Positions 4,293 through 28,672 of a stretch of 64,000 nucleotides of DNA are shown piece after piece. A program made the translations under genes and the position numbers. The notes beneath the pieces are model-generated. The model made no database searches. It saw only the letters and a list, made by a program, of their open reading frames with translations, and was not told where the DNA came from. The DNA comes from Mizuhopecten yessoensis. Taxonomy: Eukaryota. The stretch is taken from contig NW_018480062.1 of the NCBI RefSeq assembly GCF_002113885.1, forward strand, positions 336,470-400,469. Reading direction: 5' to 3'. Position 1 is the first letter of the stretch; the number at the start of each line of letters is the position of its first letter.

Positions 4293-7200
4293 CTGTTATA
4301 CATATACAGCCATTGCTACCAACCAAAGCAACACAGTTACCACCGAACTATACAGACATACTCATGAATAAGTAATCCAAGTTATGATCCTATGATCACT
4401 TTGAACTTTAAATCCGTAGCAAATGTGACATACTTCGCAAAAGTTTATTTCTGAATGTTAGTGGGTCAAAACAGATTCAGAAACAGCAGTACTTCAGTTG
4501 TTATTGGGAGAGCATGGACATCCAAAATGCAATAAGTGGTCTTTAAAACCAAGCACAAAGACACGTCGAATACTAAATAAGCTTTAACTGCCCGCGAGGC
4601 AGTCTTTTGACCTAAATAGCTTGCACTATTGGGCTCTTTGATGGGTTACATATACTGTTTCGCTCGTCTTGGCATATGTCACACAAAGAGGACATTCATT
4701 CCTTTTTCAGGTTTATGCAAATTGCCTAAAATCAGGATCTTACGTAGATTACGTCTCTCACATATATCGTTAGAGTTAGACAAGTAATTAAGTGTTAGAA
4801 GCTAAGCTAATTTGGCTTGTTAGCGGATGTTATTAAGTATTGCTCCGTATATAAAAATATCGGCCAGGCAGGGTCAATTTTTCTATAAGCACGGCATTAT
4901 GAAGTAGCGTTACACATTCGAGATGGGTAGTGATAATCATTCACAGGCTTAATGAACGCGTATATAGGTCAAACGCTGTCTCGAATGAAGCGAAGAAACT
5001 AAATGATTCTTGACATTCTAAGTACAGTCATTGGAACGATCGAAATGTCTTTCAGCGCAATATCGAAAATGCTAATAAAACCCCTCCGTCGAGAGCGATG
5101 TGTTCAAGTTGGATTGGAGTAGAACATGAAGCGATGTATAGCTAGCCTGACTGGATCGTTAGTGGGTATCGTGTCAGCAACAGTTACACAAGAGGGTTCA
5201 GGTTCCTGCAACCTTCTCATCGCAATGTATTCACAGGAAACGGAAAATTGCTTTTTGATTTGCTTCGTTTTGCCTTACAATGTTGTCCACTATGACTTAA
5301 GGTTTGGATATGCCATCTGTCAATGAGCAAATGAAAATTAAAACCGAAGAGCAACCAAGTCTCAATAACGACAAAATAACAAAGGGTCGACAGCTGGACA
5401 GAAACAGTTAGAAACACACACCTCGATCTTAATGTAAGATACTAAGACTTTATATCAAATATTCCTATTTTTAGTTTGCAGCCCGACGTAACATCTAGAG
5501 GATACGGAAGAACACTGGAAAGAAAATGTCGCGCTCTTTAACACATTGAAGTTGACACGTGTTTGAGTTACTCACGTGTGTAGGTCACGAGAGATTTCTA
5601 AGCCGTTTCAAGGAACAATTTCATATTGTTACGGGGCTGATCTAATAACGAGGCGGATATAACGGATTGTCGCTTATAAACAGCCTCGACGGAAGTTCAA
5701 CAAGCCCTCTAAAGTCTCATGTGGAACATGTTATTAAGGAAGCACGGCGAGGTCGCTGTTAATGGGTCGGAATCGCGTCCTAGAGAATTCTACAATCAGA
5801 ATACAAATAAGGAACACGTAGGGTTGTACAGCAACCGGGAAGATTATGTGCGAAGTGCATTGCACTCATTGCTAATCTGAGTTTCCTCGTCCGTAATGTG
5901 TTGGAAAGACAGGCGGCAATGTGTCGGTTAGTTATACGTCCGGAACGATCTCACTGGTTACATAAAATATAAAGGAACTTTAAACACACAAAATTGCAAT
6001 GTGATAATGCTTTGCACAGCTGTTCACCCGCTATATTTTAAAATGTATTCTGGCGTCATAAATCTCTGTTTATTTTAAGTGGGTTTTTTTGTTTGAAGCG
6101 ATTAAACAGTTGTTTTTGTGGACATAATCAATATATGATTTTGTAAAAAGATAAAAGGTGTAAGCGAAGATGTGTTGATAAGTCATCAGGTTTACGTGAT
6201 TTCGCTATTCGATTTGAAATGAAACTCTGTTAATCGTAGTTTTTGGAAAGCGTCTTTTTCATCTCAAAAACGATTTTGTATGTACCACGGGACCTTTGTT
6301 GATACTTCGACTTATCACTGCATACGGCATATATAATGATACTACGACACATTTCATACTTATCCAGCGTATGATACGACGCCTCTTACAGTACTTAATC
6401 AATCAGACCTACTACTGTACCGCTACTCCCCTAATCGCCAAGACCAAGCACTGCACTTCAAAGATATGACTCTGCATTTCATATACCACTATACCTTAAA
6501 TATTTAAATTTATCTTATTTTATCTGTTATATACGCTAAACAAACCCGTACACCATGTTTAAATGTAGCCCAGTGACCTGACTTGGCAAACGTAGCTACA
6601 TATTTATCATTACAACTGACATTTGCTATCAGCAATAAGTTGGATAAGGGATATGTATACTAGTCCTATTTCTAATTGACACATGTACTTTGTTATCGGT
6701 CCTTACCGATAAACATCGTTAAGGTTTCAAATTATAAAAAAAAACGGACCAGTACCAACGGAAATGATTAAGTCGTTATATACCCTTAGCTGTTTGGATG
6801 TCGCAAGTAACCTTCCTACAGTGGCATACTGTAAATGTGTTGATCACAGTGTGTTATACACGTATCCCACGAGGTCGGTTATTGAGTTTTGAGATACATG
6901 TACATTGTACGACTGGTAAATAAATTATACTATTACTACATTCTATACTCGCATTGAGACGCTCACAGAGTAGTAAATCTTGTTTCCTATTTCTGATGAT
7001 CTTATTAGAAATTACTTTGCGACGCAGAGCGCCTATAAAATAATGTATTGTTATTTTACACGTGTAATCTATATCATGTTCTTATTGAAATACATTATTA
7101 TCACACTTCAAATATCATCAGGATGTTTCAAAGACAAGAAAGCGATGTTTTATTCTCGAATCGTTTTCTAATTAGACTTTTTGGAGTAGATGATTTTTAA

Positions 7201-8280
7201 ATACTAACCACTAAACGCAAATAAGAAATAAAGGTCAATATCATTTATAAGTAGGTAGCGTAAACGAACGTAGAGATTTTTTGTCATCATTAAAAAGTAA
7301 TTTCATTTTAACGCTGTCTGTACAAAATTAAATTAAAAAAGTAGATTACTGAAGCTTATTTCAATCTTTGCGCTTCGATCGTTAATACATTCGAATGGAA
7401 TTAACTCCAATAAAAAAAACCGAGACGGTCATTATAGAGCGTACGACCTTGGGACAAATAATTGGATGACGTCACTGGACTCGCGTTTTAATCCTACAGT
7501 CTGACACGCTCGTCTACAGTATTGGTATTGACGAAGACTAATTCGGTAGCGTTTGTTTACAGCAATAGTCTGATTAAATGATGTCAGTGAATTTCGAGCA
7601 ATGCAGAGGCGTCAATCGTTCAAGTTCTCACATTCATCATGATTTAACAGGAGCACGAACTCGATAGCTTACTGCATTCTCCAGCTGAAAACAGCTCAAA
7701 TAACGAAAACACTCATTAACAGATCATCAAAGCTATCTCCTTTAAAAAAAAGCTGTTAGATGTTTCAAAAATGTTCGTAACTTAATATTTGCAAACCATT
7801 GACCAAATTCAAAATAAACAAGAACAAACAATATCAATCTTGACTTGAATTTGTTTATTGTTTCGTAAAAGAAAAGAGTTATCGCAAGTATAGTAGTAAC
7901 GTTGTCGTTTAAAAGAAAACATTCGGTTATATCAAACATGTAAAACGCTCGATAGCTCCGTCGCATGAACTACAATAATTTTACTGATAACTTTTATTAT
8001 CAAAGACGTCAATTCTTTTTGTGTTTATTAACAATTTGTTGATAATTTAACTGATCCTATCTAAAAGTCTACATCCTAACCTTTTAATTCTTTGTGGCAT
8101 TTTTCAATTATATAAATACGTTCAATTTATTTTACTTTGATAATTCTTAACGGCCAATCATTACAGAAGAGGTCATTAGGGGGCCTATATATGAAAAGTT
8201 AATAGAACATGCTTTAGGAGATCACTAACGAAAGGGTATTTTTAAAAGACAAATGTCAATTTGAGCATTGTCTCGACACT

Positions 8281-8334
8281 TACTTGGTGAATATGTTCTG
8301 TTATTTACAATGGCAAGAGCATATTCACCAAGTA
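8281..8334. repeat. Hairpin with 19-bp arms
   Basis: TACTTGGTGAATATGTTCT / AGAGCATATTCACCAAGTA, one G-T pair. Confidence 0.8.
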
Positions 8335-8360
8335 CAACTTACATAACTGTTTTATTCTAT

Positions 8361-9196
8361 ACAAGAGGCCCATGGGTCTAAACGGTCACCTGAGTTATGT
8401 AAAAACTGATGTTATCGATGTTGCCAAATGAAAAAGAAATCCTTTTGTAACAAAGGTAATTTGAACTGCATGTAGTGCAAAAGTAGTGTGAAAGATCTGG
8501 GTAGTATATGTACTATGTACAAATAGTGGTTCTGTCAGTCAGCTGAATTATGGTAAAGCACCTTAAGACACTTCCATATATGAAGAGTATTTGATTCTTC
8601 CATATCTTGGTCTTGAAAAGAAGATTTTTGAAATTTCAGTCAATTCAACCCTTTTTGGCCCCACCAATCAGCCCCTGGGAATCAGTCAGTGCTGATTTGT
8701 GCATATCATCAAACTGCTATCCAATACTGATAAAGCTAACCAAGTTTGAATTAATTCCAATTGAAATAAAACAAATGCTGGTCCAAAATGTGATTTCCCT
8801 ATATAAACTACAGTAAAGTTCCCAGGGGGAAACGCGAGATCCCAGGGTCATGAAATTGACTATTTTGGTAAAGCCCTTTAAACCTTCCATCTATGAAGAG
8901 TATTTGATTCTACCATATCTGGATCTTGAGAAGAAGATTTTTTAAATTTTGGTCAATATGACCTTTTTGGCCCCGCCCCTCAGGCCCCTGGAGGCTGGGG
9001 ACCATATTATTCACAATTTTGGTTGACCTTCGGCCATGGAAGGTTTCTGCAAAGTTTCATTGAAATTGGTTCAGGGGTTTTGGAGAAGAAGTCGAAAATG
9101 TGAATTGTTTAAGGACGCACGACGGACGACGGACGACGCTGGACAAAAGGCGATCGCAATAGATCACTTGATAAGTATTCTCATGTGACCTAATAA
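8361..9196 (-). mobile_element. Non-autonomous Helentron-associated element (HINE / DINE-1 / pearl-like)
   Basis: Subterminal IRs GGTCACCTGAG (~8384) and CTCATGTGACC (~9180), terminal palindrome GGCCCATGGGTC next to ACAAG, GACG/GGAC microsatellite at 9113-9143, internal duplicated block (~8550 and ~8865). Confidence 0.75.
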
Positions 9197-10186
9197 CAAA
9201 TTCAATGAAAATAGTTAGTTGTTGACATGTTTTATTTTAAATCTCGATCTAAACCCTGTTGTTTCAACGCGGTCGTCATGGCTTCAAAAACTCCGTAAGA
9301 TTTTTTTTAAATTAAACGCTGCTGATGATGTCCATGTCGACGTCCTTCAAATGGCGATTCAATCCAGTGTGATGTAAGTGTTACATGGTCCTTCTTGTAA
9401 TGTTCACCGTTTTTATCCTGGGCATCTACGTAAAATTAGGTCGCACGACAAACCTTTCACCTGCAAGTTCCTTAAAACTCTAACGGCTCGTTTTGTGGCC
9501 GTTTGTGCATTGATGATTTCTATTTATTTCCAATTGTTTTGAAAATCATCTTTACTGATGGTGAAAAATCGTTGTTTAAACGAGCTGTGACCGACGCCAT
9601 TGTTGCGGTCGGATTGCCCGGATATTTAGGTTATTTCCAGGTTCTATATTTAGATTTTTTTATTCACCGGATTTCAGGAAAACCGGTAAATATCGATTTT
9701 TATTGACTGGGTTGTTAGGGAACCTTGGCCAATCAGAATCTGTTTATAAATCAGTTATATAATAAAATGTAGTATGGAGTGTAATTGCTTGTCTACGCTT
9801 TTATTTCAAATATTTTGCCGCTTTGACCTTACAGTATTTGCTATTAACGGTTAAAAATCTGTACAATGAAGTACAAAAGCATGCAGTAGCTATTGAAAAA
9901 GCACTTAGAGTTTCTTTTGGTGTGATCTTTTAGAGCAAAAGTAGTAAAGTTAAAAAATGGAAACAATTAAGTCTAGTTAAAATACAGGCCAAGGTGAGGT
10001 CAGTAAAATGTTTTGAAAGACTGTCATTTCTGTTCCTGATGATTGTGAAACAAACACATCCTGGAAATCAACAAAGGAGGTCATTTATTCAATTCAAACT
10101 GCAAAACCCTTCGTGAAACTTCCTCAATACGATCGCTACCATTGTATAGTGAAACAATGGTATTTATAGCACTATTAACTCAAGTA

Positions 10187-11628
10187 TACAAGCGGAAAAA
10201 AGAAACTGTGCATGCCTAAAATGTGTTATAAAATTAAATGTGTATGACGTAGGACAACAAGGTTTTCAGGGACAATTTATTTGTTATTTATTAACAGCTG
10301 TATTCCATTTTTCACGTTATGGAATCAATAAGTTCCTCTCAGGAGTGACGTAAACACAGCAGGGGTCAATACTGAGTTCACTAAGTTAATACCTCGTATG
10401 TCCACCGTTTGCCTTAATGCAAGCCTGGCAATGTCTACGCATGGAGCCTATCAGAGGGTTCAAGATCTGTACCAACGCTGTAGCCAAATCAGCCAACGTC
10501 ACCGGTTGATTAGGTAATGCCCGTAATCTGCTCTTCATTTCTTCCCAGACGTGTTCAATAGGCGACAGATCGGGGGATGCAGCAGGCCAGGGGAACACGT
10601 CAACGTTCTGCTGGGCCAGACAGTCCATAGCGACACGAGCTGTGTGTGGCCTGGCGTTGTCCTGTTGTAGCGTAATGTGACGTTGCTGCCCACGACGTTG
10701 GTCCGAAAGAATCTCGACACGGTAACGTAGCGCGTTCAAATTCCCGTTAACAACCACCAGAGGCGTTCTACCGTTCGGTGTGATGCCGCCCCAAATCATA
10801 ACGCTGCCTCCGCCGAAAGAACGTCGTTGTACCACACACACGTCACGGAAACGTTCTCCAACGCGACTATACACTCTAGAACGGCCGTCACTACTATCCA
10901 GGTGGACTCGCGACTCGTCCGTAAACAAAATGCGTGCCCAATCCCGTCGAGTAAATCGCAAATGCCTTCTGCACCAGTCCAGACGTGCTTCACGATGATG
11001 TGGCAGTAGAACTAGGCGGATTGCAGGACGTCGCGGACGGATAGCTCGTTCACGCAATCGGTTCCGTACAGTTCTCGGGCTTATTGGTAGCAACCAAGGG
11101 ATTGTCCGTGCAGTCAAACTTGCCGTTTGGAAGCGATTTCTCAAATGGACAAGCCGAATATGGTTGCCTGTTGACGTGGCGTCACACGATGACGTCCCGC
11201 ACGAGGTCGATCGCCGACGTGGCCAAACTGTTGATGTCGTGTCCACAAATCCCGGATTGCGTTTCGATGGAAATGAAAACGTGTAAAGACAACGGCTTGA
11301 CCCATACCAGCTTGAAGCATACCAATAATCCGGAGGCGGTCATTTTCATTGAGCCTCGGCATAGCATTAATCACAAATTAAAACGTTATAATGCTATTCA
11401 CTGGTCTCAACAAAGTGGCCCAACAGTTGAAAAATAAACTTTCATTGTCGAATTGCAAACTGGTCAACGCCTATAGAGAGCAAACTGCACGGGAAAAACT
11501 GTCAATAACACACGGATAGTGTGTATGTGTCATACTCGGTCATGCGTGTGAATTTTCATGTATATACAGTTGGTAATGCAAGTTCTATAACAATTCTCCG
11601 CATGCACAGTTTCTTTTTTCCGCTAGTA
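10187..11628 (-). mobile_element. Tc1-family (DD34E) DNA transposon, full length but defective
   Basis: 29-bp TIRs TACAAGCGGAAAAAAGAAACTGTGCATGC (10187-10215; 11600-11628, 1 mismatch), flanking TA dinucleotides (boundary ambiguous by 2 bp), internal transposase. Confidence 0.93.
10386..11362 (-). pseudogene. Tc1 transposase with a frameshift near 11165 and apparent small in-frame deletions
   Basis: N-terminal paired-like HTH MPRLNENDRLRIIGML...DRPRAGRHRVT in one frame; HIRLVHLRNRF...FTDESR...QQDNARPH...SPDLSPIEHVW...NGGHTRY in another; 34 residues between the second D and E. Confidence 0.9.
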
Positions 11629-12334: not shown

Positions 12335-14417
12335 AATACTATACCGCTAGTACTGATACTACATATTGCACATTTATTTATATAAATTTGTGTTTGACCA
12401 AACTGACAAAATGTATAATCTATATGGAAACCTTATTTTTTTATGTACATACACGCGAAAACCATCGAAGGTACATTACTAAATCTATTTTAGCCGACAA
12501 ACCCGTTAATTTGCTGGATATGCACTTAGAGGTATACGGGTTATCTGCATTCTAGTTTGTTAGGCGTATTTTTGTTTGTTTTGTATCGCTGTGATGAGTT
12601 GTTGGACATGTACTTCAGAGAACACGGGGTATCTACATTCTAATATGTTTTGAGTATTCTTTACTTGTTTTGCTCGATACATGAAATAACCCTTATGCAC
12701 CGTCTATTATCTTGTACAACTTAAATTATAGAAATGTTAACACAGCCATATGTACTATATACGTGTAGCTAATAGATATACAATACCCAGTAGACCTAAC
12801 GTGGGGCTGTATGGAATTGCCTTCTCTACAGTAATACATATACACTGTAATATAATTGGATAGATAGCCATTTAATTCTGTTTCAGCCGATCATGACACT
12901 TCCTTCGAGAAAACTCGATTGCATCAGGGCCGTTATACTGCAAAGAAAATTGACCGAAGTTTTACATCAATAAACCGCCATGTATACAGTATAATACACA
13001 GAAATTGTATTTGGGGACAGTCTGGCACATTCTCCCTCTGTTCTATTTGTTGTCGAGTACGACAGAAACGCATTGTGTTTAACAATGTTGTTGGAGTAGT
13101 TACAATGTATCGTGAAGAAGATATCTTACTCTGTAGTGTATGCCTATTGCTCATTCAATGTATTTGAAACACACACCTTTGAAAGATGAACGTTAACTAG
13201 GTTCATTTGATTGCATCTGTTAAATATGATAACAAATACAGTATGCCCAGAAAAGTACAATACAAAAATAAATAATAAAATAGAAAAAGGATACAATAAG
13301 AATATTTTGAACTGATCTTCAAAACTGATTTTAAAATTTGATATTACTCGTTTTCGATGTGAATACGGCGAGCCAAGAAGTCAAACTAAGTACTCTCACA
13401 TCGTCCAGATTATCATTATATAAAGTAAGTACTTGTAAGTAACAGATACCATAACAGCTTTATCACGTCTGATTCTATTTTTAGATATAAATGTACGACA
13501 AAAGACGAAGTATGGCAAATTATGAACTATTATTTGAATAAATTCTTTGGTAGATACCCGATTCTTTTAAGAACATCGGTCAGTTTGTCCATGAAATCAA
13601 AGAAGACAAACAACCGACCCCTGTTGAACACCGTTAATTGTTTTTAATTACACTAGAAGTGGGCAACAAACGAAAGGTCATTGTTGGATATCGATTATTT
13701 TGTCAGTGAAAGCAAAAGTAGGCAACAACTGACCCTTGTAAAATATCCGTCATAACGCCAGTAAAATCTGAAGTAGGTTATCACAGTGTGACACCATGGA
13801 TATTTTGTTGAAGTCATGGTGAAAATATCATAAATTTAAGTTACACACCCATTGCAATAGTCATTAAACGTACACATTGCAGAACAAAGCCATCCATTGT
13901 TCATTACAAATTCATCCTTGTAAGTTTCAATTATTTATCTAGGTTGTTATATCCCGAGTGATTCTGGGTCATTCCTAATTGTCCACAAAATTGACCCAGC
14001 GTCATTATCCTTCGTTTAAATTATATGTAGTAGTGTCATTATTTGTCATTATTACTTTTAATATATTTGTGGTATTTAGCTATACGCGTTCGTATGTAAC
14101 GGAAATCAGCCTTCCGTGTAATTTTGTACGTCACGCATTGCGGCAAAACTTTTAGCGCGCGCGCGGAAATAGCACGCGTAAATGCGAGTAAGGTACTGAG
14201 CGGATGTGATGTAATGTGTTGTAAACCTGTTTGTCCAGTACGTATTGTCTATGTATAGAATACCTAGTATTGAATGTAGGGTAATTTACCTGGTGCACTG
14301 GTCACTTTGAACAGAGCGGCCAGAGCGAGCACAGCGAACATTTGTACACCTATATCTTTACCTAGCCAGCATAGGAATTAAAAGAGGTAGCGGGCACTAG
14401 AGCCAAAAGCAAATAAT

Positions 14418-14616
14418 GTAAGTACTCGCGTATAAATATAAGTTTAATTCATTATAGTATCTATTCAATAATATATTTAATTAACGTAATATTTTTGTTA
14501 AAAGTAAAGTTAATATTTTGAAAGTCTTTGTAAATTTAGAAATCGGGCGTGGTCAATTTAGTAGACAAGTGATTTCGAAGAAGCAAGTTTTTAATATATA
14601 TTGTTTCCTTTTATAG
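14418..14616 (+). other. Spliceosomal intron 1 within the 5' LTR (199 bp)
   Basis: AAT|GTAAGT ... TTGTTTCCTTTTATAG|CTT; the 3' LTR reads AAATAAT|CTTACA at 22819/22820. Confidence 0.93.
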
Positions 14617-14686
14617 CTTACATTGAACGAGTAAGACTGAGGACTCGGCGGACTTTGTCCGAGAAAACCCTCTTCACATTGAAGAG

Positions 14687-14880
14687 GTGGGTATTTTAAT
14701 ATATTTGTAATTATGCTGTATTTCTATATAATATATAGATTGAATGTAACAGTTGTAATACGTATTCCATTATTGTAACTTATGTAACTGGCTACGGCCA
14801 GGTAGTTGTTTGACATGTCTTAGCTTATGTGATTGTATAAATGTTATATGTGTAGTAATATGATGTATTTCATGTTACAG
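14687..14880 (+). other. Spliceosomal intron 2 within the 5' LTR (194 bp)
   Basis: GAG|GTGGGT ... TATTTCATGTTACAG|GGT; the 3' LTR reads GAAGAG|GGTTTT at 22889/22890. Confidence 0.93.
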
Positions 14881-14895
14881 GGTTTTTACTTACGT

Positions 14896-14901
14896 AATAA
14901 A
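14896..14901 (+). promoter_or_regulatory. LTR polyadenylation signal AATAAA (3' LTR copy at 22905-22910)
   Basis: AATAAA ~60 nt before the LTR end, downstream of both introns. Confidence 0.65.
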
Positions 14902-14961
14902 TTAACTGAGAAAAGAACCCAGGAGTTGTCGTATATCCACGATAAAAGACGACTATTACAT

Positions 14962-14973
14962 TGGCGCCCACGT
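14962..14973 (+). promoter_or_regulatory. Primer binding site, probably tRNA-Lys-like
   Basis: TGGCGCCCA(CGT) 1 nt after the 5' LTR; resembles the tRNA-Lys PBS TGGCGCCCAACGTGGGGC over the first 9 nt. Confidence 0.75.
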
Positions 14974-15453
14974 ATCGTTGATGGCCTAGTGTACCCGCCG
15001 ACACGCTTGACGGGATGGATATCTACCGACCGTAAATGTAGACCGGACTGGAAAATTCACCTGAGTGACCTATTCCACCTGATGACGGGATGGATTTCGT
15101 CTGTATGTGAATGCAGGATGTATACCAGAGAGGCACGCACGTACGCTCGAACGACCTTCGGACGACCTTGATCAACGAGTGTTTTGTGTATCACGCGACT
15201 GCAATGTGCGCAGTTGATTCTATATGTTATTGGACCCGGAGAAGAACTGGACCTGTGCTGACCGTACACGGTAAATGACAATTGTGTACCATTGACTTTC
15301 CACCCATTTTACTATATATCTTGTATTTTCTTTCGTGAAACATGAACTCTTAATGGTGAAACTTGATTTATCTTATTCATTTCATAATTGTTCTGATATT
15401 TTTTTGTGTGTGTATATTTGTCTAATAACTTCGTTCGGTATTATCTTTTGTAC

Positions 15454-15651
15454 TTCCGGTATTTTTCTTTGCATTTCCGGTAAATATTGTGAACTTCCGG
15501 TATTTTATTTTGTACTTCCGGTATTTTCTTTGTATTTCCGGTAAATATTGTGAACTTCCGGTAAACCATGGTACTTCCGGTATAACTTTAACTTCTGGTC
15601 GAATTTAACTTTCTGTATTTTCGTACTTCCGGTACGCTGTCAATTTCCGGT
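15454..15651. promoter_or_regulatory. Array of nine TTCCGGT (ACCGGAA, ETS-type) motifs, mostly ~20 bp apart, in the retrotransposon 5' UTR
   Basis: Copies at 15454, 15475, 15495, 15516, 15536, 15556, 15575, 15627, 15645; variant TTCTGGT at 15593. Confidence 0.6.
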
Positions 15652-16500
15652 GACATTTTTGAAAAAAATCCAGTATTATTTAATATCTGTTATCAGCAAA
15701 CATTTATATTTGTATTGAGTTATTGTAGTAGAAAGTAATTGAATTATTTAATTGTATTTTTCAGTTATTCATTTTTTTTGTTCGCTTCAATATATTTCTA
15801 GTTTGAATTGAATTTTGATTTCACTCATGATTTATTGAAATGCTTTGATTGAATTTATTTTTTTCCCTTCTCTTCAACTTTGATTATCTTGATTGTTTTC
15901 ATATTGAGCTTTCATTTTTGATTTTGTTTAGTACAAATTGACGTTTCTTGGATTTTTCAAAATGTTTTTGTGAATACAAATTGTGTATTTTTTTTTTTTG
16001 TTCTCGTGTCTTTAAATTAATTTATACGTGGTTGTCGGAAATATACTTTGCTTCAGAGGAGTCACTTGTTATTAATTTGACTTCGTGGTGTTTTTTTTGG
16101 AATTTATTTCTTTTGAAATTGGCTGGGGTTTTTTTTACTTAATTTTGGCTTAAGTTGTCTTATAGTGTTAAATTTCTGTTGTCATTGATAATTGATAAAT
16201 TTACTTAGATTTTTGTTTTCATTTTTTCTTCTGTTTCGAAAGTTAACATGTAGGATTACTTAAGTAATTTTTTTTTCAAGTGGAATAGTTATTTTGTGGG
16301 TACATGCTTGGTCGCAGTTGATGTTGTTCTTTGTTACACGTGCTATGTGGATCTTTCTGTATTTATGTTGAATGGATGATGGTGCGTTAGATGCTATTTA
16401 TCGCTAATCGGATTGATTTTTTCGTTGACTTATTCGCGTGTATTTTGGCTGAACGCGACCGAATATCATTCTTCTTAGGATTTACATAGTTCTATTTCAG

Positions 16501-16686
16501 GTAAGTCATTTAATTCATTGACGGTAGATGTGGCAGAGTTGGCTGGTTTTATTTGATTTATAAGTGTGTATATCTATGAGAACGAGAGTAAAATACTTGT
16601 TCTGTGTTTGGTGAGAACACATAGATGAACTTTGTTGGTTTGCTTGAATATTTTATTTGTGTTTTGTTGTGTTTATTGTGATACAG
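16501..16686 (+). other. Putative 5' UTR intron ending 8 nt before the gag ATG (186 bp)
   Basis: Consensus donor CAG|GTAAGT; U-rich tract then GATACAG|GTTTCGCGATGG; size similar to the LTR introns; no spliced copy in the window. Confidence 0.6.
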
Positions 16687-16694
16687 GTTTCGCG

Positions 16695-17858
16695 ATGGCC
16701 GATTCTGAAGAAAAACTATCGCAGGCGGAAGCGATACTTCCACAAGAGGAAGCGGACTCTGTAGAGCATGTGTCTAAGTTGTTTTCTCAAATGGGTGCTA
16801 GACCTAAAGGTGATAGTTTAGTTAAGTTAAGGAGTCAGATGATGGATTTCCTTAATTCAACAGGAGGATTGGACACTGCTAATCCGTCGATGGCTGGACA
16901 AGGGGTAAGTGGAAATGTTGTTTCTCAGGGTATTGGTTCTACCACAGGCACTCTGGACACGAGATTCTACAAGTTACCGTTATTTTCTGGAGATCAAGGA
17001 AAGGGTGAGGCTACTTTCGATTTATGGAAATACGAAGTGCAATGTCTGATTGACACAGGTAAGTCACAGGATGTCATTGGGCAGTCTATCCGAAGATCTC
17101 TGAAGGGAACTGCAGCCAGAGTAGCCATGCGGTTAGGAGCTAATGCGACACCCGCACAGTTGATCGCCAAACTTAGAAGTCTGTATGGTATAGTAGATGA
17201 CCAGGAGACTCTGTTGGAGAATTTCTATGCCGCACATCAGCAACCCAAGGAAAATGTGACTGAGTGGGCTTGTAGACTGGAAGACTTGTTGCTTAGAGCC
17301 GATTCTGGTATAGGACCTGCGGAACGCAATAAGCGGTTGCACAACAAGTTTTGGTCTGGTCTGAGGCAAGACTTAAGAGATGTTACTGGCCACAAGCATG
17401 ACTCCATTGCTGATTATGAAGAACTATGCATAGCAGTAAGATCTATAGAAAGGACAAGAGACAACGAGAAACCATCGAAGGCGACTGTTACTGTCAACTC
17501 AGCTGTTGAAGGGGAGGAGAAGGAGGATTTGAGGTCTGTGGTCAACCAATTGTCTGCTGCTATTCAGAGGTTAGAGAAGCAGATATCCGATGGTGGGACA
17601 ACCTCGTGGAAGAACAACAGAGATCACAGGAACAGGAATAGAGGAAACTCTAACAACTACGGAGGAGGGTCTGTTTACCACTCTAAGCCGTCGCAAGAGA
17701 AGACTGACCAGGATGACGCGTCTTGGGACAGGAAACCTGATATTATATGCTGGAGGTGCAGACAGCCGGGACATATCAGAGCGCGATGCAGGGTAAATAT
17801 GGATCACTCGCGCAGTTCGGTAAAAGGGAAGGAGTCTATGAAGACGGACCACTCATAG
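16695..17858 (+). CDS. gag: Gag (PNMA-like capsid, CCHC zinc knuckle), 387 aa
   Basis: FSGD...FDLWKYEV...IRRSLKGTAA...LRSLYG...QQPKENVTEWACRLEDLL capsid motifs; CWRCRQPGHIRARC knuckle; first ATG in good context (GCGATGG). Confidence 0.93.
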   Translation: MADSEEKLSQAEAILPQEEADSVEHVSKLFSQMGARPKGDSLVKLRSQMMDFLNSTGGLDTANPSMAGQGVSGNVVSQGIGSTTGTLDTRFYKLPLFSGDQGKGEATFDLWKYEVQCLIDTGKSQDVIGQSIRRSLKGTAARVAMRLGANATPAQLIAKLRSLYGIVDDQETLLENFYAAHQQPKENVTEWACRLEDLLLRADSGIGPAERNKRLHNKFWSGLRQDLRDVTGHKHDSIADYEELCIAVRSIERTRDNEKPSKATVTVNSAVEGEEKEDLRSVVNQLSAAIQRLEKQISDGGTTSWKNNRDHRNRNRGNSNNYGGGSVYHSKPSQEKTDQDDASWDRKPDIICWRCRQPGHIRARCRVNMDHSRSSVKGKESMKTDHS

Positions 17859-20800
17859 ATTTCCGAATTCAAGGTCCGAACAAGAGTACTAAGGCTACTA
17901 GGACAGGAACACAAATGGTTGGCAATGCTAATGAAGTTGATGTCAACGTAGAAGGTAAGGGGACCAGGGCGTTACTTGATACAGGTGCGACCGTGTCTAC
18001 GGTTAGCCAACATTTTTATGAATGTCATCTGAGTCATTTGGACCTGCAGCCACTGGATGAAATTCTTTCTATAGAATGTGCTGATGGTCAACAGTTACCT
18101 TACTCCGGATTTATCGAAGCGGGAGTCAGTTTTGAAGGACTATTTGGAAGAGATGAGCAGAGGTGTCTTTTGCTGGTAGTCCCCAACAGCAACTATAACT
18201 CCAAGGTACCAGTGTTGTTTGGAACCAACGTTCTGTCGGTATTGTTGGAAGGGTGTCGAAGCAGGAATGGACCGAAGTTCTTGCAGAAGGGATTGGATAC
18301 TCCATGGTTTTTAGCATTTCGCTGTATGACATTGAGGGATCGGGATTTGGTGAGAAATCGCAACAGCATTGGCCTCGTCAAGAATGCAGGAAACATGGAT
18401 TGCGTCCTTAGACCGAACTCTACTATCACCCTGAAGGGATATGTAGACCAGCGGAGCGCCTATCCAACTACCTGTGCTATCATGCAGCCCACGGAACGAT
18501 CCAAGCTGTCCAAAGATATTGATGTTACACCTACAGTGTTTTCATATGACTGCGACAGTACACATCCATTGGACGTTCAACTATCCAATCTGACAACACA
18601 TACGTTTATCATTCCTCCCAAGGCAATTTTATGTGAGATACAGCCAGTGATTGTCCAGGAACTTCCTACTGTTGATGGAGAGGTGGGAATACCGAAGTCA
18701 TTTATGGATAAGATAGACTTTACCAATTCAGCTGTTACGGAGGAGGAACTACAGCTAGGAACGAAACTCATAAAGGGATACGAGGATATATTTTCACACG
18801 GAGATACTGACCTCGGGTGTACTAATCTCGTGAAACATCGAATCGATTTGACGGATCCAGTTGCTTTTAAACAACGCCATAGGAGGATACCACCTTCTAT
18901 GTATGACGAAGTGAAGACTCATCTTCAGCAACTTTTGTCTGCGGGAGTCATCAAACCATCATACAGTCCCTGGTCATCGAACATTGTTCTGGTGAGGAAG
19001 AAAGATGGATCATTGAGGATGTGTGTGGATTTCCGACAGCTAAATCAACGCACCATTCGGGATGCATACGCGTTACCACGAGTAGAGGACATCCTGGATT
19101 GTTTAGCTGGATCACACTACTTTACTGTGCTGGATTTAAAGTCGGGTTATCATCAGGTTGAGCTAGAGGAAGAACATAAGGAGCGAACTGCATTTACCGT
19201 CGGCCCACTGGGGTTTTATGAGTTCACGAGGATGCCTTTTGGACTTACGAACGCTCCTGCGACATTTCAGCGCCTGATGGAGAGATGCATGGGAGACCTA
19301 CACTTAGCTATCTGCCTGATATATCTTGATGATTTAATCATCTTTTCGCGAACGTATGAGGAGCATCTGGAACGACTAGGAAAGGTTTTTCAGAGACTCA
19401 GAGACAACGGTTTGAAGCTTGCGCCTAAGAAATGCCAGTTCTTTATGAACAGAGTTGCCTATGTTGGACACATCGTCACACCGGAAGGCATTGAGGCAGA
19501 TCCCAAGAAGATTGAGAAGGTACGAGACTGGCCGACACCGTCTAATCCTGAAGAACTACGTCAATTCCTAGGTTTTGCTGGTTACTACAGGAAGTTTGTA
19601 AAGGATTTTTCAAAGATTGCGAGACCTTTAACTGACCTGTTACCACCGACCAGAGTAAAGAAGAACAAAGGAAGGGCAAAGACTAAGATAAATGGCGTTA
19701 AGTGGACATGGGCATCGGAGCATGATACAGCGTTCAACGGCCTGAAGGAAGCGTTATGCAATCCTCCTGTGCTTGGATATGCTAACTACAGTCAGCCGTT
19801 TGAGCTTCACACCGATGCAAGTACCTTAGGACTAGGAGCCGTTCTATATCAAGAGCAAGATGGACAGTTACGACCTATTTGCTACGCCAGTCGAGGATTG
19901 AGCAAGTCGGAGAGGAATTACCCGGCTCATAAACTGGAATTCCTGGCGTTAAAATGGGCAGTTACCGAAAAGTTCCATGACCATCTATATGGACAGACGT
20001 TCACCGTTTTAACGGACAACAACCCGCTGACCTACGTTTTGTCGAAAGCAAAGCTTGACGCGACGGGGCATAGGTGGTTGTCCGCTCTAGCGGCATACAA
20101 CTTCGATATTAAGTATCGACCAGGACGGAACAACGCGGACGCAGACGCTTTGTCACGGCTTCCGGGATGTAACATATCATCAGAATCTGTCCAAGCCGTC
20201 TGTAAAGGAGCAACGTTTTGTAAAGGTTCATTGGTGGAAAGCTTGAGCCTATCAACAGAGGTATTGGATATGCTTGACGTTGATGACGAACATGGTTTCC
20301 AAACCATGACACCCCACCAGTGGCGAACTCTTCAGACGGAGGACGATGTTATAGGGGAATGGCTACCCATCATTAGGAGGAATCTGAAGCCAACACGGAA
20401 GAGGTTTTCAGCTATACCAGAAAACGCAACCCTTAACAGATGCTGGGATAGCTGGAAACTGAAACGTGGTGTGCTATATAGACGGGTATCTGATGGTGAG
20501 ACCGATGTGGACCAACTTGTACTTCCGGTTGCCATGCGAGAGAAGGTCCTGACGTCATTACACAATGACATTGGCCATCCTGGAAGGGATAGGACGTTAT
20601 CTCTGCTGAGAGATAGATTCTTTTGGCCTGGTATGACCAAAGATGTGGAAACGTGGTTGAAGGAATGCCAGAGATGTCTACTCAGGAAATCGTCGACTAG
20701 CATTAGGGCTCCGTTAGTCAACATTGTTACCACCCAACCTATGGAGTTGGTATGCATGGACTTCTTGAAACTAGAGGCGTCTAAAGGGGGGTTTCAAGAT

Positions 20801-22132
20801 GTTTTAGTAATCACCGACCATTTTACGAGGTATGCCAAAGCCATTCCAACTCGGAGTCAGTCGGCTAAAGCAACAGCGGAGGCTTTGCAGGGATTTATTG
20901 AACATTACGGAATTCCGCGGAGATTACATTCCGACCAAGGAGCTAACTTCGAGGGGAAAGTAATAGAAAGTTTGTGCGAAACATTTCATATTACTAAATC
21001 GAGAACGACACCATACCATCCTAGCGGAAATGGAATGTGCGAACGTTTCAACAGAACCCTGATCGACATGTTAGGCACATTGGAACCGCATCAAAAGAAA
21101 GACTGGAAGAGCTTTGTGGGTTCGCTCACATATGCGTACAACTGTACACGGCATAAGACAACGGGTTATTCGCCATTTCAGCTGATGTTTGGACGACAGC
21201 CACGATTGCCCGTTGATCTATTGTGTGGAGTAAACGAGGAAATTACCCCAACTAGCATGCCGGATTATGTCAAAAACATGAGGAACCGGATGTCACATTC
21301 GTTCAGCTTAGCGAGTAAGAAGGCTCGGGAATCGCAGAGTCGTCAGAAGGCAGGCTACGATCTACGTAGTAGAGAAGCCGTTTTGGAACCGGGTGACCGC
21401 GTTCTTGTTAAGGTACTTGCCTTTGAGGGACGTCACAAGCTAGCGGATCGCTGGGAGCCTGACGTATACATCGTACAGAGTCAACCCAACATTGACATTC
21501 CGGTATACACCATACTTCGAGAGAGTGGTGAAGGAAAGAGTAGAACTCTTCACAGAAACCATCTACTTCCAATTGGAACTATACCGGTGGAAGTGGATAC
21601 GGTACCCATTGCACATCCACCTCGGCCGGTACCTCGTGTTAGGAGGTCGAGGATGGATAGTGGTCCGCATCATCGGAAGTCTGTGGCTGAGCCTGTTGTA
21701 TCACCGCCTGTAAGTGACAGCAACGAGAGCTCGGATGAGGAATTTGTGGGTATGAACGTTCCTACTAACGTTCAACGGCCTCCCACACAGGACAAGGTGC
21801 AGCCGAGCAAGGACATGACACCCGTACCTGGACCTCAGATCGACTTCAGTGATGAGGAGACATCGGAATCGGAACCGGAGGATGAACCTGCAGCTGCAGT
21901 ACAGGGGAATACTACTTCGCCTGATCCGGAGATTCCAATACCCCGACGATCGACAAGGAACAAACGACCGCCTAATTGGATGACATCAGGCGAGTTTGTT
22001 TGTTCACAACAACCTGCTGGAGCGGAATGGAAGATGAAAGCCATGTTTCTGATGGACATAACATCTACAGCATCCTTCGGAGATATGCCAGCATCAGCCC
22101 AACAGGCATTGTTAAATATTTTAACTGGTTGA
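17747..22132 (+). CDS. pol: Pol polyprotein (protease, RT, RNase H, integrase), probably made as Gag-Pol by frameshift near 17819-17825
   Basis: LLDTGA protease; RMCVDFR, RMPFGL, YLDD RT; HTDAS, TDNNPL RNase H; H-H-C-C zinc finger with CMDF, HSDQG, NGMCER integrase; 1461 codons without a stop. Confidence 0.97.
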   Translation: MLEVQTAGTYQSAMQGKYGSLAQFGKREGVYEDGPLIDFRIQGPNKSTKATRTGTQMVGNANEVDVNVEGKGTRALLDTGATVSTVSQHFYECHLSHLDLQPLDEILSIECADGQQLPYSGFIEAGVSFEGLFGRDEQRCLLLVVPNSNYNSKVPVLFGTNVLSVLLEGCRSRNGPKFLQKGLDTPWFLAFRCMTLRDRDLVRNRNSIGLVKNAGNMDCVLRPNSTITLKGYVDQRSAYPTTCAIMQPTERSKLSKDIDVTPTVFSYDCDSTHPLDVQLSNLTTHTFIIPPKAILCEIQPVIVQELPTVDGEVGIPKSFMDKIDFTNSAVTEEELQLGTKLIKGYEDIFSHGDTDLGCTNLVKHRIDLTDPVAFKQRHRRIPPSMYDEVKTHLQQLLSAGVIKPSYSPWSSNIVLVRKKDGSLRMCVDFRQLNQRTIRDAYALPRVEDILDCLAGSHYFTVLDLKSGYHQVELEEEHKERTAFTVGPLGFYEFTRMPFGLTNAPATFQRLMERCMGDLHLAICLIYLDDLIIFSRTYEEHLERLGKVFQRLRDNGLKLAPKKCQFFMNRVAYVGHIVTPEGIEADPKKIEKVRDWPTPSNPEELRQFLGFAGYYRKFVKDFSKIARPLTDLLPPTRVKKNKGRAKTKINGVKWTWASEHDTAFNGLKEALCNPPVLGYANYSQPFELHTDASTLGLGAVLYQEQDGQLRPICYASRGLSKSERNYPAHKLEFLALKWAVTEKFHDHLYGQTFTVLTDNNPLTYVLSKAKLDATGHRWLSALAAYNFDIKYRPGRNNADADALSRLPGCNISSESVQAVCKGATFCKGSLVESLSLSTEVLDMLDVDDEHGFQTMTPHQWRTLQTEDDVIGEWLPIIRRNLKPTRKRFSAIPENATLNRCWDSWKLKRGVLYRRVSDGETDVDQLVLPVAMREKVLTSLHNDIGHPGRDRTLSLLRDRFFWPGMTKDVETWLKECQRCLLRKSSTSIRAPLVNIVTTQPMELVCMDFLKLEASKGGFQDVLVITDHFTRYAKAIPTRSQSAKATAEALQGFIEHYGIPRRLHSDQGANFEGKVIESLCETFHITKSRTTPYHPSGNGMCERFNRTLIDMLGTLEPHQKKDWKSFVGSLTYAYNCTRHKTTGYSPFQLMFGRQPRLPVDLLCGVNEEITPTSMPDYVKNMRNRMSHSFSLASKKARESQSRQKAGYDLRSREAVLEPGDRVLVKVLAFEGRHKLADRWEPDVYIVQSQPNIDIPVYTILRESGEGKSRTLHRNHLLPIGTIPVEVDTVPIAHPPRPVPRVRRSRMDSGPHHRKSVAEPVVSPPVSDSNESSDEEFVGMNVPTNVQRPPTQDKVQPSKDMTPVPGPQIDFSDEETSESEPEDEPAAAVQGNTTSPDPEIPIPRRSTRNKRPPNWMTSGEFVCSQQPAGAEWKMKAMFLMDITSTASFGDMPASAQQALLNILTG
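17819..17878 (+). promoter_or_regulatory. -1 programmed ribosomal frameshift signal: G_GUA_AAA, 5-nt spacer, H-type pseudoknot
   Basis: pol is in the -1 frame; stem 1 17831-17841 / 17853-17863 (11 bp, 2 G-U); loop CGGACC (17845-17850) pairs with GGTCCG (17873-17878). Confidence 0.75.
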
Positions 22133-22414
22133 GTATGTGTGCCATTTTACGTAACGTTATTTGAACGTTAATATGCATTTGTATATGTAGTATGTATGTG
22201 TAAATGGAAACCCCATGGAAGATGAGGACATCTTTCATTTAAGCGGGGGAATACCTGATGAATTGGGGAGTTAATATATATTTTTTTGTTTTTTCCTCAG
22301 TTGCAGATTTTATATTTGAATTGTGTGTAAATATTTTGCATGGACTTTTGTTATATTGTTTTATGTTTTATTTACATTATTTCCTGATCATGTAGATGAG
22401 GACATCTTCCATCT

Positions 22415-22427
22415 AAGGAGGGGAGAA
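22415..22427 (+). promoter_or_regulatory. Polypurine tract
   Basis: AAGGAGGGGAGAA directly before the 3' LTR TG. Confidence 0.9.
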
Positions 22428-22969
22428 TGTAGTAGTGTCATTATTTGTCATTATTACTTTTAATATATTTGTGGTATTTAGCTATACGCGTTCGTATGTA
22501 ACGGAAATCAGCCTTCCGTGTAATTTTGTACGTCACGCATTGCGGCAAAACTTTTAGCGCGCGCGCGGAAATAGCACGCGTAAATGCGAGTAAGGTACTG
22601 AGCGGATGTGATGTAATGTGTTGTAAACCTGTTTGTCCAGCACGTATTGTCTATGTATAGAATACCTAGTGTGGAATGTAGGGTAATTTACCTGGTGCAC
22701 TGGTCACTTTGAACAGAGCGGCCAGAGTGAGCACAGCGAACATTTGTACACCTATATCTTTACCTAGCCAGCATAGGAATTAAAAGAGGTAGCGGGCACT
22801 AGAGCCAAAAGCAAATAATCTTACATTGAACGAGTAAGACTGAGGACTCAGCGGACTTTGTCCGAGAAAACCCTCTTCACATTGAAGAGGGTTTTTACTT
22901 ACGTAATAAATTAACTGAGAAAAGAACCCAGGAGTTGTCGTATATCCACGATAAAAGACGACTATTACA
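22428..22969 (+). repeat. 3' LTR (542 bp), the precisely spliced form of the 5' LTR
   Basis: 935 - 199 - 194 = 542; TG...CA termini; followed by TATA TSD. Confidence 0.96.
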
Positions 22970-24469
22970 TATATACTTATTATTTTTATTCTAGTTTCAT
23001 GTACTTGCCTAAATAGATAAAGAGAATTAAACTCATTTTATCCTCGTTCAACCTTCGAGTGATATTGGGCCAACTCGATGAGCGCATGAATATTTTATAT
23101 TAACATCAGGGTCATTTGGTTGGACGGAAGTTGTGGAATCGATTGTTTTTTCCAAAAGTCTCAGAAAGAGTATTCGTGCAGTAGATCATTCTTTACATGT
23201 CTTTCGAATCAACACCGTTAAAGTCGTCGGAGGCCAATACTATTATGACACGCCTGGTTTATACTAAGTTTGTTTAACGTTTTATCGTTTAAGAAAAAGT
23301 TTGGCCTTCCGACATTTTATAACACAAATTCTGATAAGAAAACGAACATGCATTTAATAAATATTCACGATTACCGTGACACATCGTGTGAGAAAATCAT
23401 GCCGATTTTAATGTAAATATTACTCCAGAAGGAAGACGTACGTGTGGTTAGATCATTTAAGCAATAATTTGTCTATTGCGTTAGAAGTTTATTTCCCCGT
23501 GTCTCCGTTGAAAAAGTTTCAAAATTGTCGAAAACAACTGACGATGACTGCTTTATTTACACTATGCACCCTTTTCGTTGAATACTCAATAGAATATTTG
23601 ATTATTTAAAAAAAAGGAATATAAGTTTGGTTTTTGTTTTTGTTTCTGTGCAAGTTGATTTCACCGCACGGCTTGCGAGGTACAGGTAAGACCGGGCGAG
23701 ATAAACTCACTCGATGGGTATCGGTCAAATCCGTCAAATCCGTCATTCTCATACAAAGAGCGATGTAACTGTGTTACAAATATTACGCTTGTGCCTGTGA
23801 CGATACTTACACCGTTTATAATGACTTGTGACTAATTGTAAATACAGCATGGTTTTCTTAAAACCACGAAATAAACGAAAAGAAATCCCCAACGAAATAT
23901 ACTGCTTTTACAGTAGTAACATTAGAAAATATAGCCTTGTTCCAGCAAAATAAATTGTTCCTTATGCGATAAAACAGTTTGCCCGGAATGAACCAGGAAT
24001 CACAAACAAAATTAAAAAAGATGAAATAGCATGTTTGACATAGCTGTTCTTATCGTTTGCAAAACCGTTCCGTTCATCTCCAAGATGTAAAGGCGCATAT
24101 TATTGGACTATCTTTGATCGACATGTATTGCATTCCATCATGAATATTATAAAGACGCATTTATCTTGAAGCATATTTAGTGTTATATTGATTTAAAACA
24201 TTTTGAAAATTTGCCAAGTGAGTGAATGTGCCTTAAATTTACGTTGACAGTTCCATGCTACATAAACAACTCGTCCCAGACGAAGGAATGTGGCAAATTT
24301 GTTTAAACGGATGTAATTTTTAAAGAAAGATTACCTCGGCACTTTTACGAAATGAACGTAGTGAAGGTAATGCCATAAACGTTTGTCTGTACAATGTGGC
24401 ACTTGTTTTAAATACATTTATACTTTATATTATTGAATTCGCATTCGGTAAACACAAGCGGGTACTTAC

Positions 24470-24544: not shown

Positions 24545-26760
24545 CTGAAAATATATAAATTATTCAATTGATGTATTAGAAAGTAGCAAAATCAACAAAA
24601 CGAAACTAAAACTGAAAATGAAATAGAAATGCAATAAAGAATGTCTAAGTACAATGTATATCAGAAGGGTAAAATATGACAATAAATGCATGAAAAGAAG
24701 TCATCAACAAAGACAATTACTCAAACTACAATATTCGAATTTCTAAAAATGTAGTGTTTTCTTAACGAGAAACCGCTCCCTGAAATCTTTCGACATTCCG
24801 TTGGGTACGCTCATCCTGCGTTATAAATTTACATGATCTAGTGACATTTCAGACTAACATCTATCTCGGAACTCGTTTCCAGCTATATATCACGGACAAA
24901 GTTTCACGTAAACTGTCTATACAGTGTGTACACAACAGAACGAACACAATAAATCTCACTCCCAAAGCATACCCAGTAAGATGTTATAGATTTGTTTAAG
25001 TGACAAATGTCTTCCAATGACCTTGACCCTGAACTTTATGTGCGAGCACGAGACCGCGTGCTACACGATCGAACACATGACCCGTATTTGCCAAAACCAG
25101 CATCACTGTGCTTTACAGTTGGAGGCCTCGTTTTGATAACCGATGGTTACTTTAAGCATTCGTTCCAGACAACAAACTGTCCATAAACTTCGATAAACTC
25201 CGTTTGGTTTGGTTTGATTTTAGATAATGCCCTTTGAAGTTATTTTAGGAACTTCAAAGTTTATTTTGTCCTCGTTTAATTTGTACGCGATTCCGTTCGA
25301 AGTAAAGCTGTTGTTGATACGATTCTATCTATGATGTCGGGTAAGCACACTATTCTTACGTAAATATCGGTTTTACCTTGACACTTGGCACCGTTGCGTT
25401 GATCTTTATTACAGAAGCTAACATTGGATATTTCGCTTACTTTGATCAAGGACGTATTGCATTTTGGGATTGCATAAATCATTTTCTAACCAACATTATC
25501 TTGCAATGGCCTAACCGCACGGAACACAGCTGTTTGATGACGAGACAGATTTATTTTGTCCCTGCTTTAACGCTTTATATTGAGGTATGTTGCTCGGGTC
25601 GCCATTACTGGCGATGTGTTGTTTGTTGTTTTGAATGGTATCATATATAGCATGGATTAGGAACTGTCGTAAGTTATCTTACGTTTCAATTTTTTTTTAA
25701 TTTCTTGATTTATATTAGCCCTACTATGATTGAAACCGACATAGAGGCGGTTCTGTTGGGTGTGGAAAGGAGGGACGAATGTCGGATTGAGGGCATTTTT
25801 GGAGTAAGTGCAACTTTTGTTTTTAACACATCCAGGATCCTTGTTGAAACATATTATATTTTAGAATATAGCAGAGTGTATGAGGCGTATTGTCGGTTAA
25901 TATGATAACTCATGGTGCAACGATTACTGTAGTACGATAACATCAGAAATATCATTTTATCCAGATTGGAACATATTTCATATCTTCATATACTCGTCCC
26001 GGGTTTTATACGTATGACTTCCGGTTTGTCGCTAATCCACTCGACCTCTTGGACCACCTCAAATGTATATTTTATAATATATGATAATCAAATAATGAAG
26101 GAGACTATTACATGTACAATCCCACAACACATTTCGTTAAAGTGTCATATCACTTAAATTACGTTGCAGTTCTGTTTCCACACTGTGTTTTGATCAACAA
26201 ATACAACAGTTATCCCCCTTGTCATCCCCTTTTTTATCCAGTTTGAGTGCGTTTACGTCTATCAGTGCTATTGATTGAGACATGCACTCAGAAGGAACGG
26301 CGGCAATACACACGCTAGCGTCAAGACAATGCATCATTACAGGAACGAGAAGTCAAATAAATTCCTGTTCCTGAATCAAATAGCATTACCTAACTTTTTT
26401 TCCAGACATCCGTGCCACACAAACAGACGTTATAGATCTAACAGCACTATTCTGCACTATAAATCAATTAACACTAATTACTTATGTTATGTGCAGGGAA
26501 CCGATGTTTACATAGTTTGGCAGACGACATGTTTGTTAGCCTGCGTTGTCAAAGTGTCAAGCCCACAGTCTGACTCAACCCGTCTCTTATTTTATGTTTG
26601 ATGAGTTTGTCTAACAGACCTTCTGAACGCAAGATGATAAACATCAATTATATGATGACATTTTATGCATAAAAATAGCTCATTTAGAAGGGAAATATGA
26701 TTGTTTGTTTACCTAAGATTTATAATGTTAAAGATTGCAAAGCTCGAGTGAAACATATAG

Positions 26761-28321: not shown

Positions 28322-28672
28322 CCAATAGCTGATCGAGGGGAAACAATTGATAGAGTTTTACTGCTTCATGTACAGTGTACAAGAGCAATATATATTTTAT
28401 CATACCGACATAGAACAACAGGTCAACACCAGAACCAATTAGACTACTTATTGTCATCATTTTTTGTTGTTGTTGTTGTTGTTGTTGTTGCACATACGCA
28501 TTGGGTTTTACAGATACCTGTATTCAACGTGGAAACTTAGCGAGAGGAAGGGACATTCATTGTTGTACTGCCCGTCATGTGATATGTGAAAAACAATCAG
28601 ACACACTGTAACATTGCTCTAAGGAATACATCCGTATATATGCGATTCAATCTTTTACCGAGTACAAATATG

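Follow-up and report, generated by a model that had tools for sequence, protein, structure and literature searches.

The window analyzed here, a 64,000-nt stretch of contig NW_018480062.1 from the scallop Mizuhopecten yessoensis, contains one full-length long terminal repeat (LTR) element at positions 14026 to 22969 (Table 1). It is an intact Ty3/Gypsy retrotransposon with the hallmarks of that group, namely, direct LTRs beginning with TG and ending with CA, a primer-binding site (PBS), a polypurine tract (PPT), and a short target site duplication (TSD). Its gag is followed by a pol whose Pfam domains stand in the Gypsy order of protease, reverse transcriptase (RT), RNase H, and integrase, the protease match (E = 2.5e-4) lying below the curated Pfam cutoff. 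No GIY-YIG domain was found among the Pfam matches of the element. We take the PBS to resemble a tRNA-Lys site; ARAGORN predicted no tRNA genes in the 64-kb window. The gag product is identical to that of M. yessoensis LOC110448649 at 355 of 361 residues. Its PNMA type, together with the assignment of the PNMA progenitor to the Barthez lineage of Ty3/Gypsy in excerpts of PMC3670739, suggests a link to Barthez. No further copy of the element was found within the 64-kb window, and as to continuity of the flanks across the TSD, no informative repeat in the window matched them.

Table 1. Features of the retrotransposon, in coordinates of the 64,000-nt window
Feature	Position	Strand	Remarks
Left TSD, TATA	14022..14025	+	Same 4 nt as 22970-22973
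5′ LTR	14026..14960	+	935 nt, TG...CA, intron bearing
Promoter-like part of U3	14076..14225	+	CpG rich (16 CpG/150 nt), apparently TATA-less; identical in both LTRs
Stretch of exon 1	14239..14326	+	88 nt; 4/5 substitutions (14239, 14269, 14271, 14326)
Intron 1 (predicted)	14418..14616	+	199 nt, GTAAGT...TTTATAG, 23% GC; not in 3′ LTR; one possible placement
Middle exon	14617..14686	+	70 nt; carries substitution 14647
Intron 2 (predicted)	14687..14880	+	194 nt, GTGGGT...TTACAG, 28% GC; not in 3′ LTR; 4 equivalent placements, one GT-AG
AATAAA, probable poly(A) signal	14896..14901	+	65 nt before LTR end; 3′ copy at 22905
PBS	14962..14973	+	After 1-nt spacer; first 9 nt common to loci L001 and L008
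Candidate leader intron	16501..16686	+	186 nt, retained here, ends 9 nt before gag ATG; donor top score, acceptor below threshold
gag	16695..17858	+	Open frame, PNMA type; Pfam PF14893, E = 1.3e-7, above cutoff
pol	17741..22132	+	Open; overlaps gag in −1 frame; protease-RT-RNase H-integrase
PPT	22394..22427	+	Abuts 3′ LTR; second copy 22220-22250
3′ LTR	22428..22969	+	542 nt; 5′ LTR minus both introns, plus 5 substitutions
Right TSD, TATA	22970..22973	+	

The PPT and its upstream motif occur twice in the 3′ untranslated region (22220 to 22250 and 22394 to 22424, 87% identical over 31 nt), and a second plus-strand origin from the duplicate is possible. Between the two copies lies a strong splice-acceptor-like site (22281 to 22300) that is not spliced in this copy of the element. 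Since the candidate leader intron is retained before the start of gag, packaged RNA may have been at least partly unspliced. The fold of positions 14860 to 15000 gave z = −1.97. Elsewhere in the window, we observed a Tc1/mariner-type transposase open reading frame (ORF) on the minus strand (10386 to 11339; Pfam DDE_3 and HTH_Tnp_Tc3_2); an element at 26760 to 28322 with inverted arms of about 240 nt that are 94 to 95% complementary, holding a 138-amino-acid ORF with no Pfam match; a tandem array of a 50-nt unit with strong strand skew at about 35986 to 38600; and three copies of a tRNA-like repeat at 57663 to 58130, not called as a tRNA gene by ARAGORN and perhaps a SINE-like remnant.

Intron-like gaps between the two LTRs

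Global alignment of the two LTRs produced three ungapped blocks and two gaps, of 199 and 194 nt, each filled by sequence present in the 5′ LTR only; the difference in LTR length is thus 393 nt of precise intron sequence. The probability that a random deletion in this LTR could be placed as GT-AG is 0.009, falling to 8e-5 for two such deletions. The gaps also show a pyrimidine-rich acceptor and exact loss, and the missing segments have 23 to 28% GC, compared with 34 to 47% in the exons. Judged by sequence, the two gaps are spliceosomal introns, which would be spliced in vivo, and these features support the 3′ LTR being a spliced version of the 5′ LTR. With a GT-AG chance of 8e-5, the pair does not appear explainable as LTRs that were identical at insertion and later decayed at random; taken alone, the five substitutions are compatible with decay. 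Introns 1 and 2 have no common block exceeding about 22 nt in comparisons within the window, intron 1 has no flanking duplication, and neither intron has a further copy in the 64-kb window. Similarly, introner features (repeated related introns with transposon ends or TSDs) were not found in the window.

An earlier, sequence-only reading of this locus had placed the introns in R or U3 rather than U5, pointing out that AATAAA follows both of them. That hexamer is indeed present at 14896, but the reading had passed over an ATTAAA at 14377, upstream of both introns. We favor AATAAA as the signal because the poly(A) hexamers of two related loci described below, L006 and L008, sit 45 to 110 nt from the LTR end. 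Related elements have their donor downstream of a TATA box or initiator, and their poly(A) hexamer comes after the intron; R is therefore the probable location of the introns, in agreement with the earlier placement. Prediction of the transcription start site (TSS) on the LTR sequence found no TATA box in a usable place, and initiator-like matches at 14052, 14302, and 14350 are about as numerous as expected by chance. The motif identities assigned in the promoter-like part, 14076 to 14225, are presumptive.

LTRs of related elements

Relatives were obtained by scanning GTDB genome contigs with the pol alignment, which gave 27 loci; those argued from here have 41 to 58% pol identity, and one, L010, has 38%. 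To judge from their content and titles, nearly all 27 are apparently animal host DNA inside symbiont metagenome-assembled genomes (MAGs). GTDB species genomes from animal-associated MAGs hold contigs like host Gypsy retrotransposons (L001 to L025), probably through contamination. In a midpoint-rooted RT-RNase H tree of 30 rows, none of them a named reference element, the scallop element clusters with molluscan sequences (support 100/99), and a wider group (96/98) adds fish, frog, and MAG-derived sequences.

The search for LTR pairs covered 22 of the 27 loci, 5 loci under 3 kb having been dropped, and found a pair around pol in two, L008 and L010. No LTR pair was present within the stretch examined at L015 and L016, and the tandem or circular contigs of L001/L003, L012, and L025 were not scored as pairs. 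In L008 (41% pol identity), the LTRs differ over 598 nt by one substitution and a single 1-nt gap, and each contains a GT-AG segment of 116 nt with 27% GC; the TSD of this locus does not match. The LTRs of L010 are 79.6% identical, with no GT-AG gap among their long gaps. In L006 (49%), the LTR next to the PPT retains a GT-AG segment of 129 nt and gives way to antisense gag sequence that is unrelated; the donor of this segment lines up with the L008 donor, both occupying the same position downstream of the TATA box. Strong donors are also found in the LTR after the PPT in L001 (54%, same molluscan subclade) and L007 (58%), which, like L005, may be collapsed or tandem assemblies.

L005 (47%) carries an exact 104-nt block twice within one LTR (7170 to 7273 and 7383 to 7486). 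The block starts at the A of an initiator match, the first copy running into a GT donor and the second into the next exon. We read this single contig as a spliced 5′ end apparently joined to an unspliced 3′ R, and the duplicate block fits spliced and unspliced forms of R both reaching cDNA. A splice scan of six LTR stretches gave 9 sense and 4 antisense donors, compared with about 0.5 per kb in flanking DNA, and no donor in the 552 nt of L004; the scan was crude, with assumed site frequencies and arbitrary thresholds, and missed the intron 1 donor and intron 2 acceptor of the window as well as the L008 donor. This modest evidence suggests that elements of the wider group keep the intron at the 3′ end by default.

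The arrangement in the window, unspliced at the 5′ end and spliced at the 3′ end, was seen in no relative, the sample being two LTR pairs among 22 loci, both distant. The sequence-only reading had envisaged an asymmetry perpetuated from cycle to cycle. The relatives speak against this, L008 being symmetric and the 3′ LTR of L006 keeping its intron.

Several of these loci have further features of their own. Between pol and the 3′ LTR, L006 has a 200-amino-acid histone-fold ORF (5882 to 6484; Pfam Histone, E = 5e-29), whose start is presumably H3-like, and L008 has about 3.9 kb of sequence in the same interval. L005 has the same kind of PPT duplicate as the scallop element (6152 to 6184 and 6915 to 6947). 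L001 has a 2.1-kb LTR (8060 to 10188) with several strong donors, on a contig with an internal repeat period of about 9.4 kb.

Substitutions between the LTRs and the age of the element

Five substitutions separate the exonic parts of the two LTRs (5′/3′ base: 14239 T/C, 14269 A/G, 14271 T/G, 14326 C/T, and 14647 G/A), a divergence of 0.92% (95% interval, 0.30 to 2.1%). Global alignment thus returned exactly the sites named by the sequence-only reading, and the identical ends it described (the first 213 nt and about the last 120 exonic nt) measure 213 and 119 of 542 aligned exonic nt, counted from the TG at 14026. Its placing of the mismatches in the central intron-bearing part is accurate in that all of them fall within 210 of the 542 nt, but it is overstated, since four of the five are confined to an 88-nt stretch of exon 1, the 91 nt adjoining intron 1 are free of them, and the fifth is in the middle exon. 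Two of the five are CpG transitions, including 14647, where the derived state would be that of the 3′ LTR. The first 213 nt hold 34 of the 60 CpG positions, none of which has changed.

We measured clustering with a boundary-free span test. The probability that all changes would lie within 210 of 542 nt was 0.075 for five events and 0.16 for four, with 14269 and 14271 merged; CpG stratification left the result unchanged (P = 0.073 and 0.156, respectively). An identical 5′ stretch of at least 213 nt had P values of 0.08 and 0.13 under a uniform model and 0.045 and 0.072 when stratified by CpG. P values of 0.01 to 0.05 were reached only if the TSS was assumed to lie at 14190 to 14238, while a TSS at the initiator-like match near 14304 gave a Fisher P value of 0.55. 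We rejected the clustering as proof: values of 0.008 to 0.02 arose only with both boundaries read off the data, and the span test was used instead. Clustering is barely, at most marginally, beyond chance and is not significant without post hoc boundaries. A single event or a gene conversion tract predicts the same substitution pattern as separate inheritance of the R regions. The five substitutions do not separate the competing models, and their clustering by itself adds little.

We asked whether the internal body of the element looks fresher than the LTRs, as it should if the LTR clock overestimates its age. The probability of finding no stop codon was 0.36 at the point estimate of divergence and 0.09 to 0.72 over its interval, and this test was uninformative. 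Among the 82 of 107 homologs kept at ≥50% identity, the pol of the window departs at 3 of 129 columns that are invariant in the other sequences, a load reached by 4 of the 82 sequences (the window included), with a median of 0. This load fits roughly 0.5 to 1% drift per copy, and since the sister sequence P0038 departs at 2 of 116 columns, it may be partly a property of the lineage. At the low power of these tests, pol looks no younger than the LTR clock, its conserved-column load being high rather than low. A reading of the body as younger than the LTR clock was accordingly rejected, the stop codon test being uninformative and the conserved-column test pointing the opposite way, and the claim of the sequence-only reading that LTR dating would overestimate the insertion age finds no support. 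The difference of 1 in 354 gag residues from M. yessoensis (before the divergence point) was also discarded as a measure of age, since the M. yessoensis record and this locus could be allelic.

Origin of the unequal LTRs and comparison with known systems

We favor, with a probability of roughly 0.5, a one-off reverse transcription from two differently spliced RNA templates in an intron-bearing family. In the standard cycle, both LTRs are copied from one minus-strand segment. Excerpts of PMC5668417 give the same scheme. Because the standard cycle derives both LTRs from one such segment, two templates are needed for the pair seen here. The LTRs of this lineage would carry spliceosomal introns in R, normally at both ends, and we propose that they are kept there because unspliced RNA is packaged. 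One particle would have held two differently spliced RNAs and supported one irregular reverse transcription event, in which an R-spliced RNA served as the template for the LTR adjoining the PPT and an unspliced RNA served as the template for the 5′ R. The route may have been an intermolecular plus-strand transfer or a minus-strand read-through used once, and the product would then have been inserted normally by the integrase. The five substitutions would mostly be postinsertion drift or differences between the parent templates. Since the second transfer was intramolecular in early retroviral studies (excerpts of PMC12789967), both routes are expected to be rare. Relatives at 41 to 58% pol identity suggest a one-off event; against it stand the clustering under a TSS at 14190 to 14238 and the absence of changed CpGs in the first 213 nt.

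A cyclic version of this idea had been put forward in the sequence-only reading, in which every cycle includes an early minus-strand jump and read-through past the PBS, U3 and U5 are homogenized, and the 5′ R with introns and the 3′ R without them form separate lineages. Its central requirement of a two-template event stands, and read-through is one workable route, but the perpetuated asymmetry and the separate R lineages are unsupported. Separate inheritance of the R regions in particular is unproven, with the evidence tending against it, and we consider it distinctly improbable. The identical stretches at the U3 side and the LTR end agree with it, as does the clustering under the same assumed TSS positions. 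Judging from the position of AATAAA (14896), the early jump could draw on about 40 nt of R in the last exon; early transfer of partial strong-stop DNAs does occur (excerpts of PMC6088434), and an intronless 3′ R could escape nonsense-mediated decay. However, the boundary-free P value is 0.07 to 0.16, and four of the five changes lie in exon 1, where, since exon 1 would be the annealing stretch of the second jump, they could persist only through repair that favored the minus strand every time. Early jumps would have to be the rule, whereas full-length strong-stop DNA serves the great majority of first transfers in retroviruses (excerpts of PMC6088434), and the second transfer would have to differ from the intramolecular one described in excerpts of PMC12789967. 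The symmetry of L008, the 3′ intron of L006, and a body no younger than the LTR clock (no-stop probability of 0.36, with a high conserved-column load) also count against it. If it were true, the two LTRs of this scallop Gypsy family would never come from one template, the 5′ R being unspliced and intron enhanced. Furthermore, the rule of identical LTRs at insertion would be broken, and LTR dating would be invalid for this Gypsy family.

Gene conversion after integration is an unlikely account, in which spliced cDNA from this or a sibling locus overwrote the middle of the 3′ LTR of a symmetric copy and the substitutions mark the tract. Intron loss mediated by cDNA is well established. Such an event would be expected to remove both introns together, leave the TSD intact, and limit the differences to a central tract, all of which is seen here, and no unusual strand transfer would be required; it would nevertheless take free spliced cDNA and recombination at this very LTR, and two of the changes resemble CpG decay in place more than alleles brought in from a donor. 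Quite improbable, in our view, is ectopic recombination of an intron-bearing copy with an intronless daughter elsewhere, joined within the internal region. Such daughters are expected, by an established mechanism, whenever spliced RNA is copied normally, and L008 is an example of a near-identical LTR pair without a matching TSD. Yet differences across the whole LTR would be predicted, and the first 213 nt are identical; the 4-nt flanks also match, although for a TSD of such low complexity as TATA, target preference could produce the match. It is extremely unlikely that an introner-like process added the two introns to the 5′ LTR once the element was inserted or that the pair is an assembly artifact. 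Intron-generating transposons are known in many lineages (excerpts of PMC12130899), but the two introns here lack a shared block above about 22 nt or a further copy in the window, intron 1 lacks a flanking duplication, introns occupy a conserved place in the LTRs of relatives, and the 3′ LTR is properly bounded by PPT and TSD.

Under the favored reading of a single two-template event, or under cDNA recombination, the element would be a fossil of that event and a natural counterpart of engineered intron reporters. A pair of LTRs, then, need not have a single template as its source, and copies of this kind may escape LTR finders that require both repeats to be similar in length. As a structure, the spliced/unspliced LTR pair is genuine and unusual, a variant of known two-template events. 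Among the matches listed in a literature search whose scope lay outside most subscription journals, Repbase, and supplements, none described an integrated element in which one LTR is spliced and the other is not, and consensus libraries in supplements on bivalve transposable elements could bear on this novelty. Penelope-like elements have an intron-bearing pseudo-LTR and retain the intron in the terminal repeat; the scallop element differs from them in having a DDE integrase, a PBS, and a PPT. A 1997 paper reportedly offers a precedent for second-strand transfer in a retrotransposon departing from the retroviral scheme, although it concerns the PBS rather than R. With other PNMA-gag Ty3/Gypsy elements, relatives of which occur in molluscs, fish, and frogs, the scallop element shares the PNMA gag, the protease-RT-RNase H-integrase order, TG...CA LTRs, the PBS, and the PPT, but its LTRs differ by 393 nt of precise introns. 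No spliced/unspliced LTR pair appears in the available excerpts of PMC12130899, PMC10886601, PMC13524379, and PMC12786077 or in the reference list of PMC5371799.

Asymmetric LTRs are known from HIV-1, where 24 of 88 proviruses had an intact 5′ LTR and a shorter 3′ LTR, proposed to result from plus-strand strong-stop transfer between two copackaged genomes (excerpts of PMC9278108). The HIV-1 deletions begin upstream of the 3′ LTR (excerpts of PMC9278108), whereas the pieces missing from the scallop element are internal, with exact GT-AG ends. Likewise, two family members are copackaged in Arabidopsis Onsen, and hybrid LTRs arise by switching within R; the relevant excerpts of PMC5668417 describe no splicing difference, and hybrid LTRs alone do not make the two ends differ. 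The nearest likeness in the introns themselves is in maize, where transcripts of LTRs frequently consist of three exons, the middle one short, joined at canonical junctions; the authors of a 2026 preprint call this the first evidence for LTR introns of biological relevance (excerpts of PMC13192763). Those are plant elements with introns averaging 1.3 kb, documented by RNA reads, and no integrated copy with one spliced LTR is reported for maize in the available excerpts of PMC13192763. Intron-like segments at a conserved place in R of related animal elements would extend to animals the feature reported for maize LTRs (excerpts of PMC13192763).
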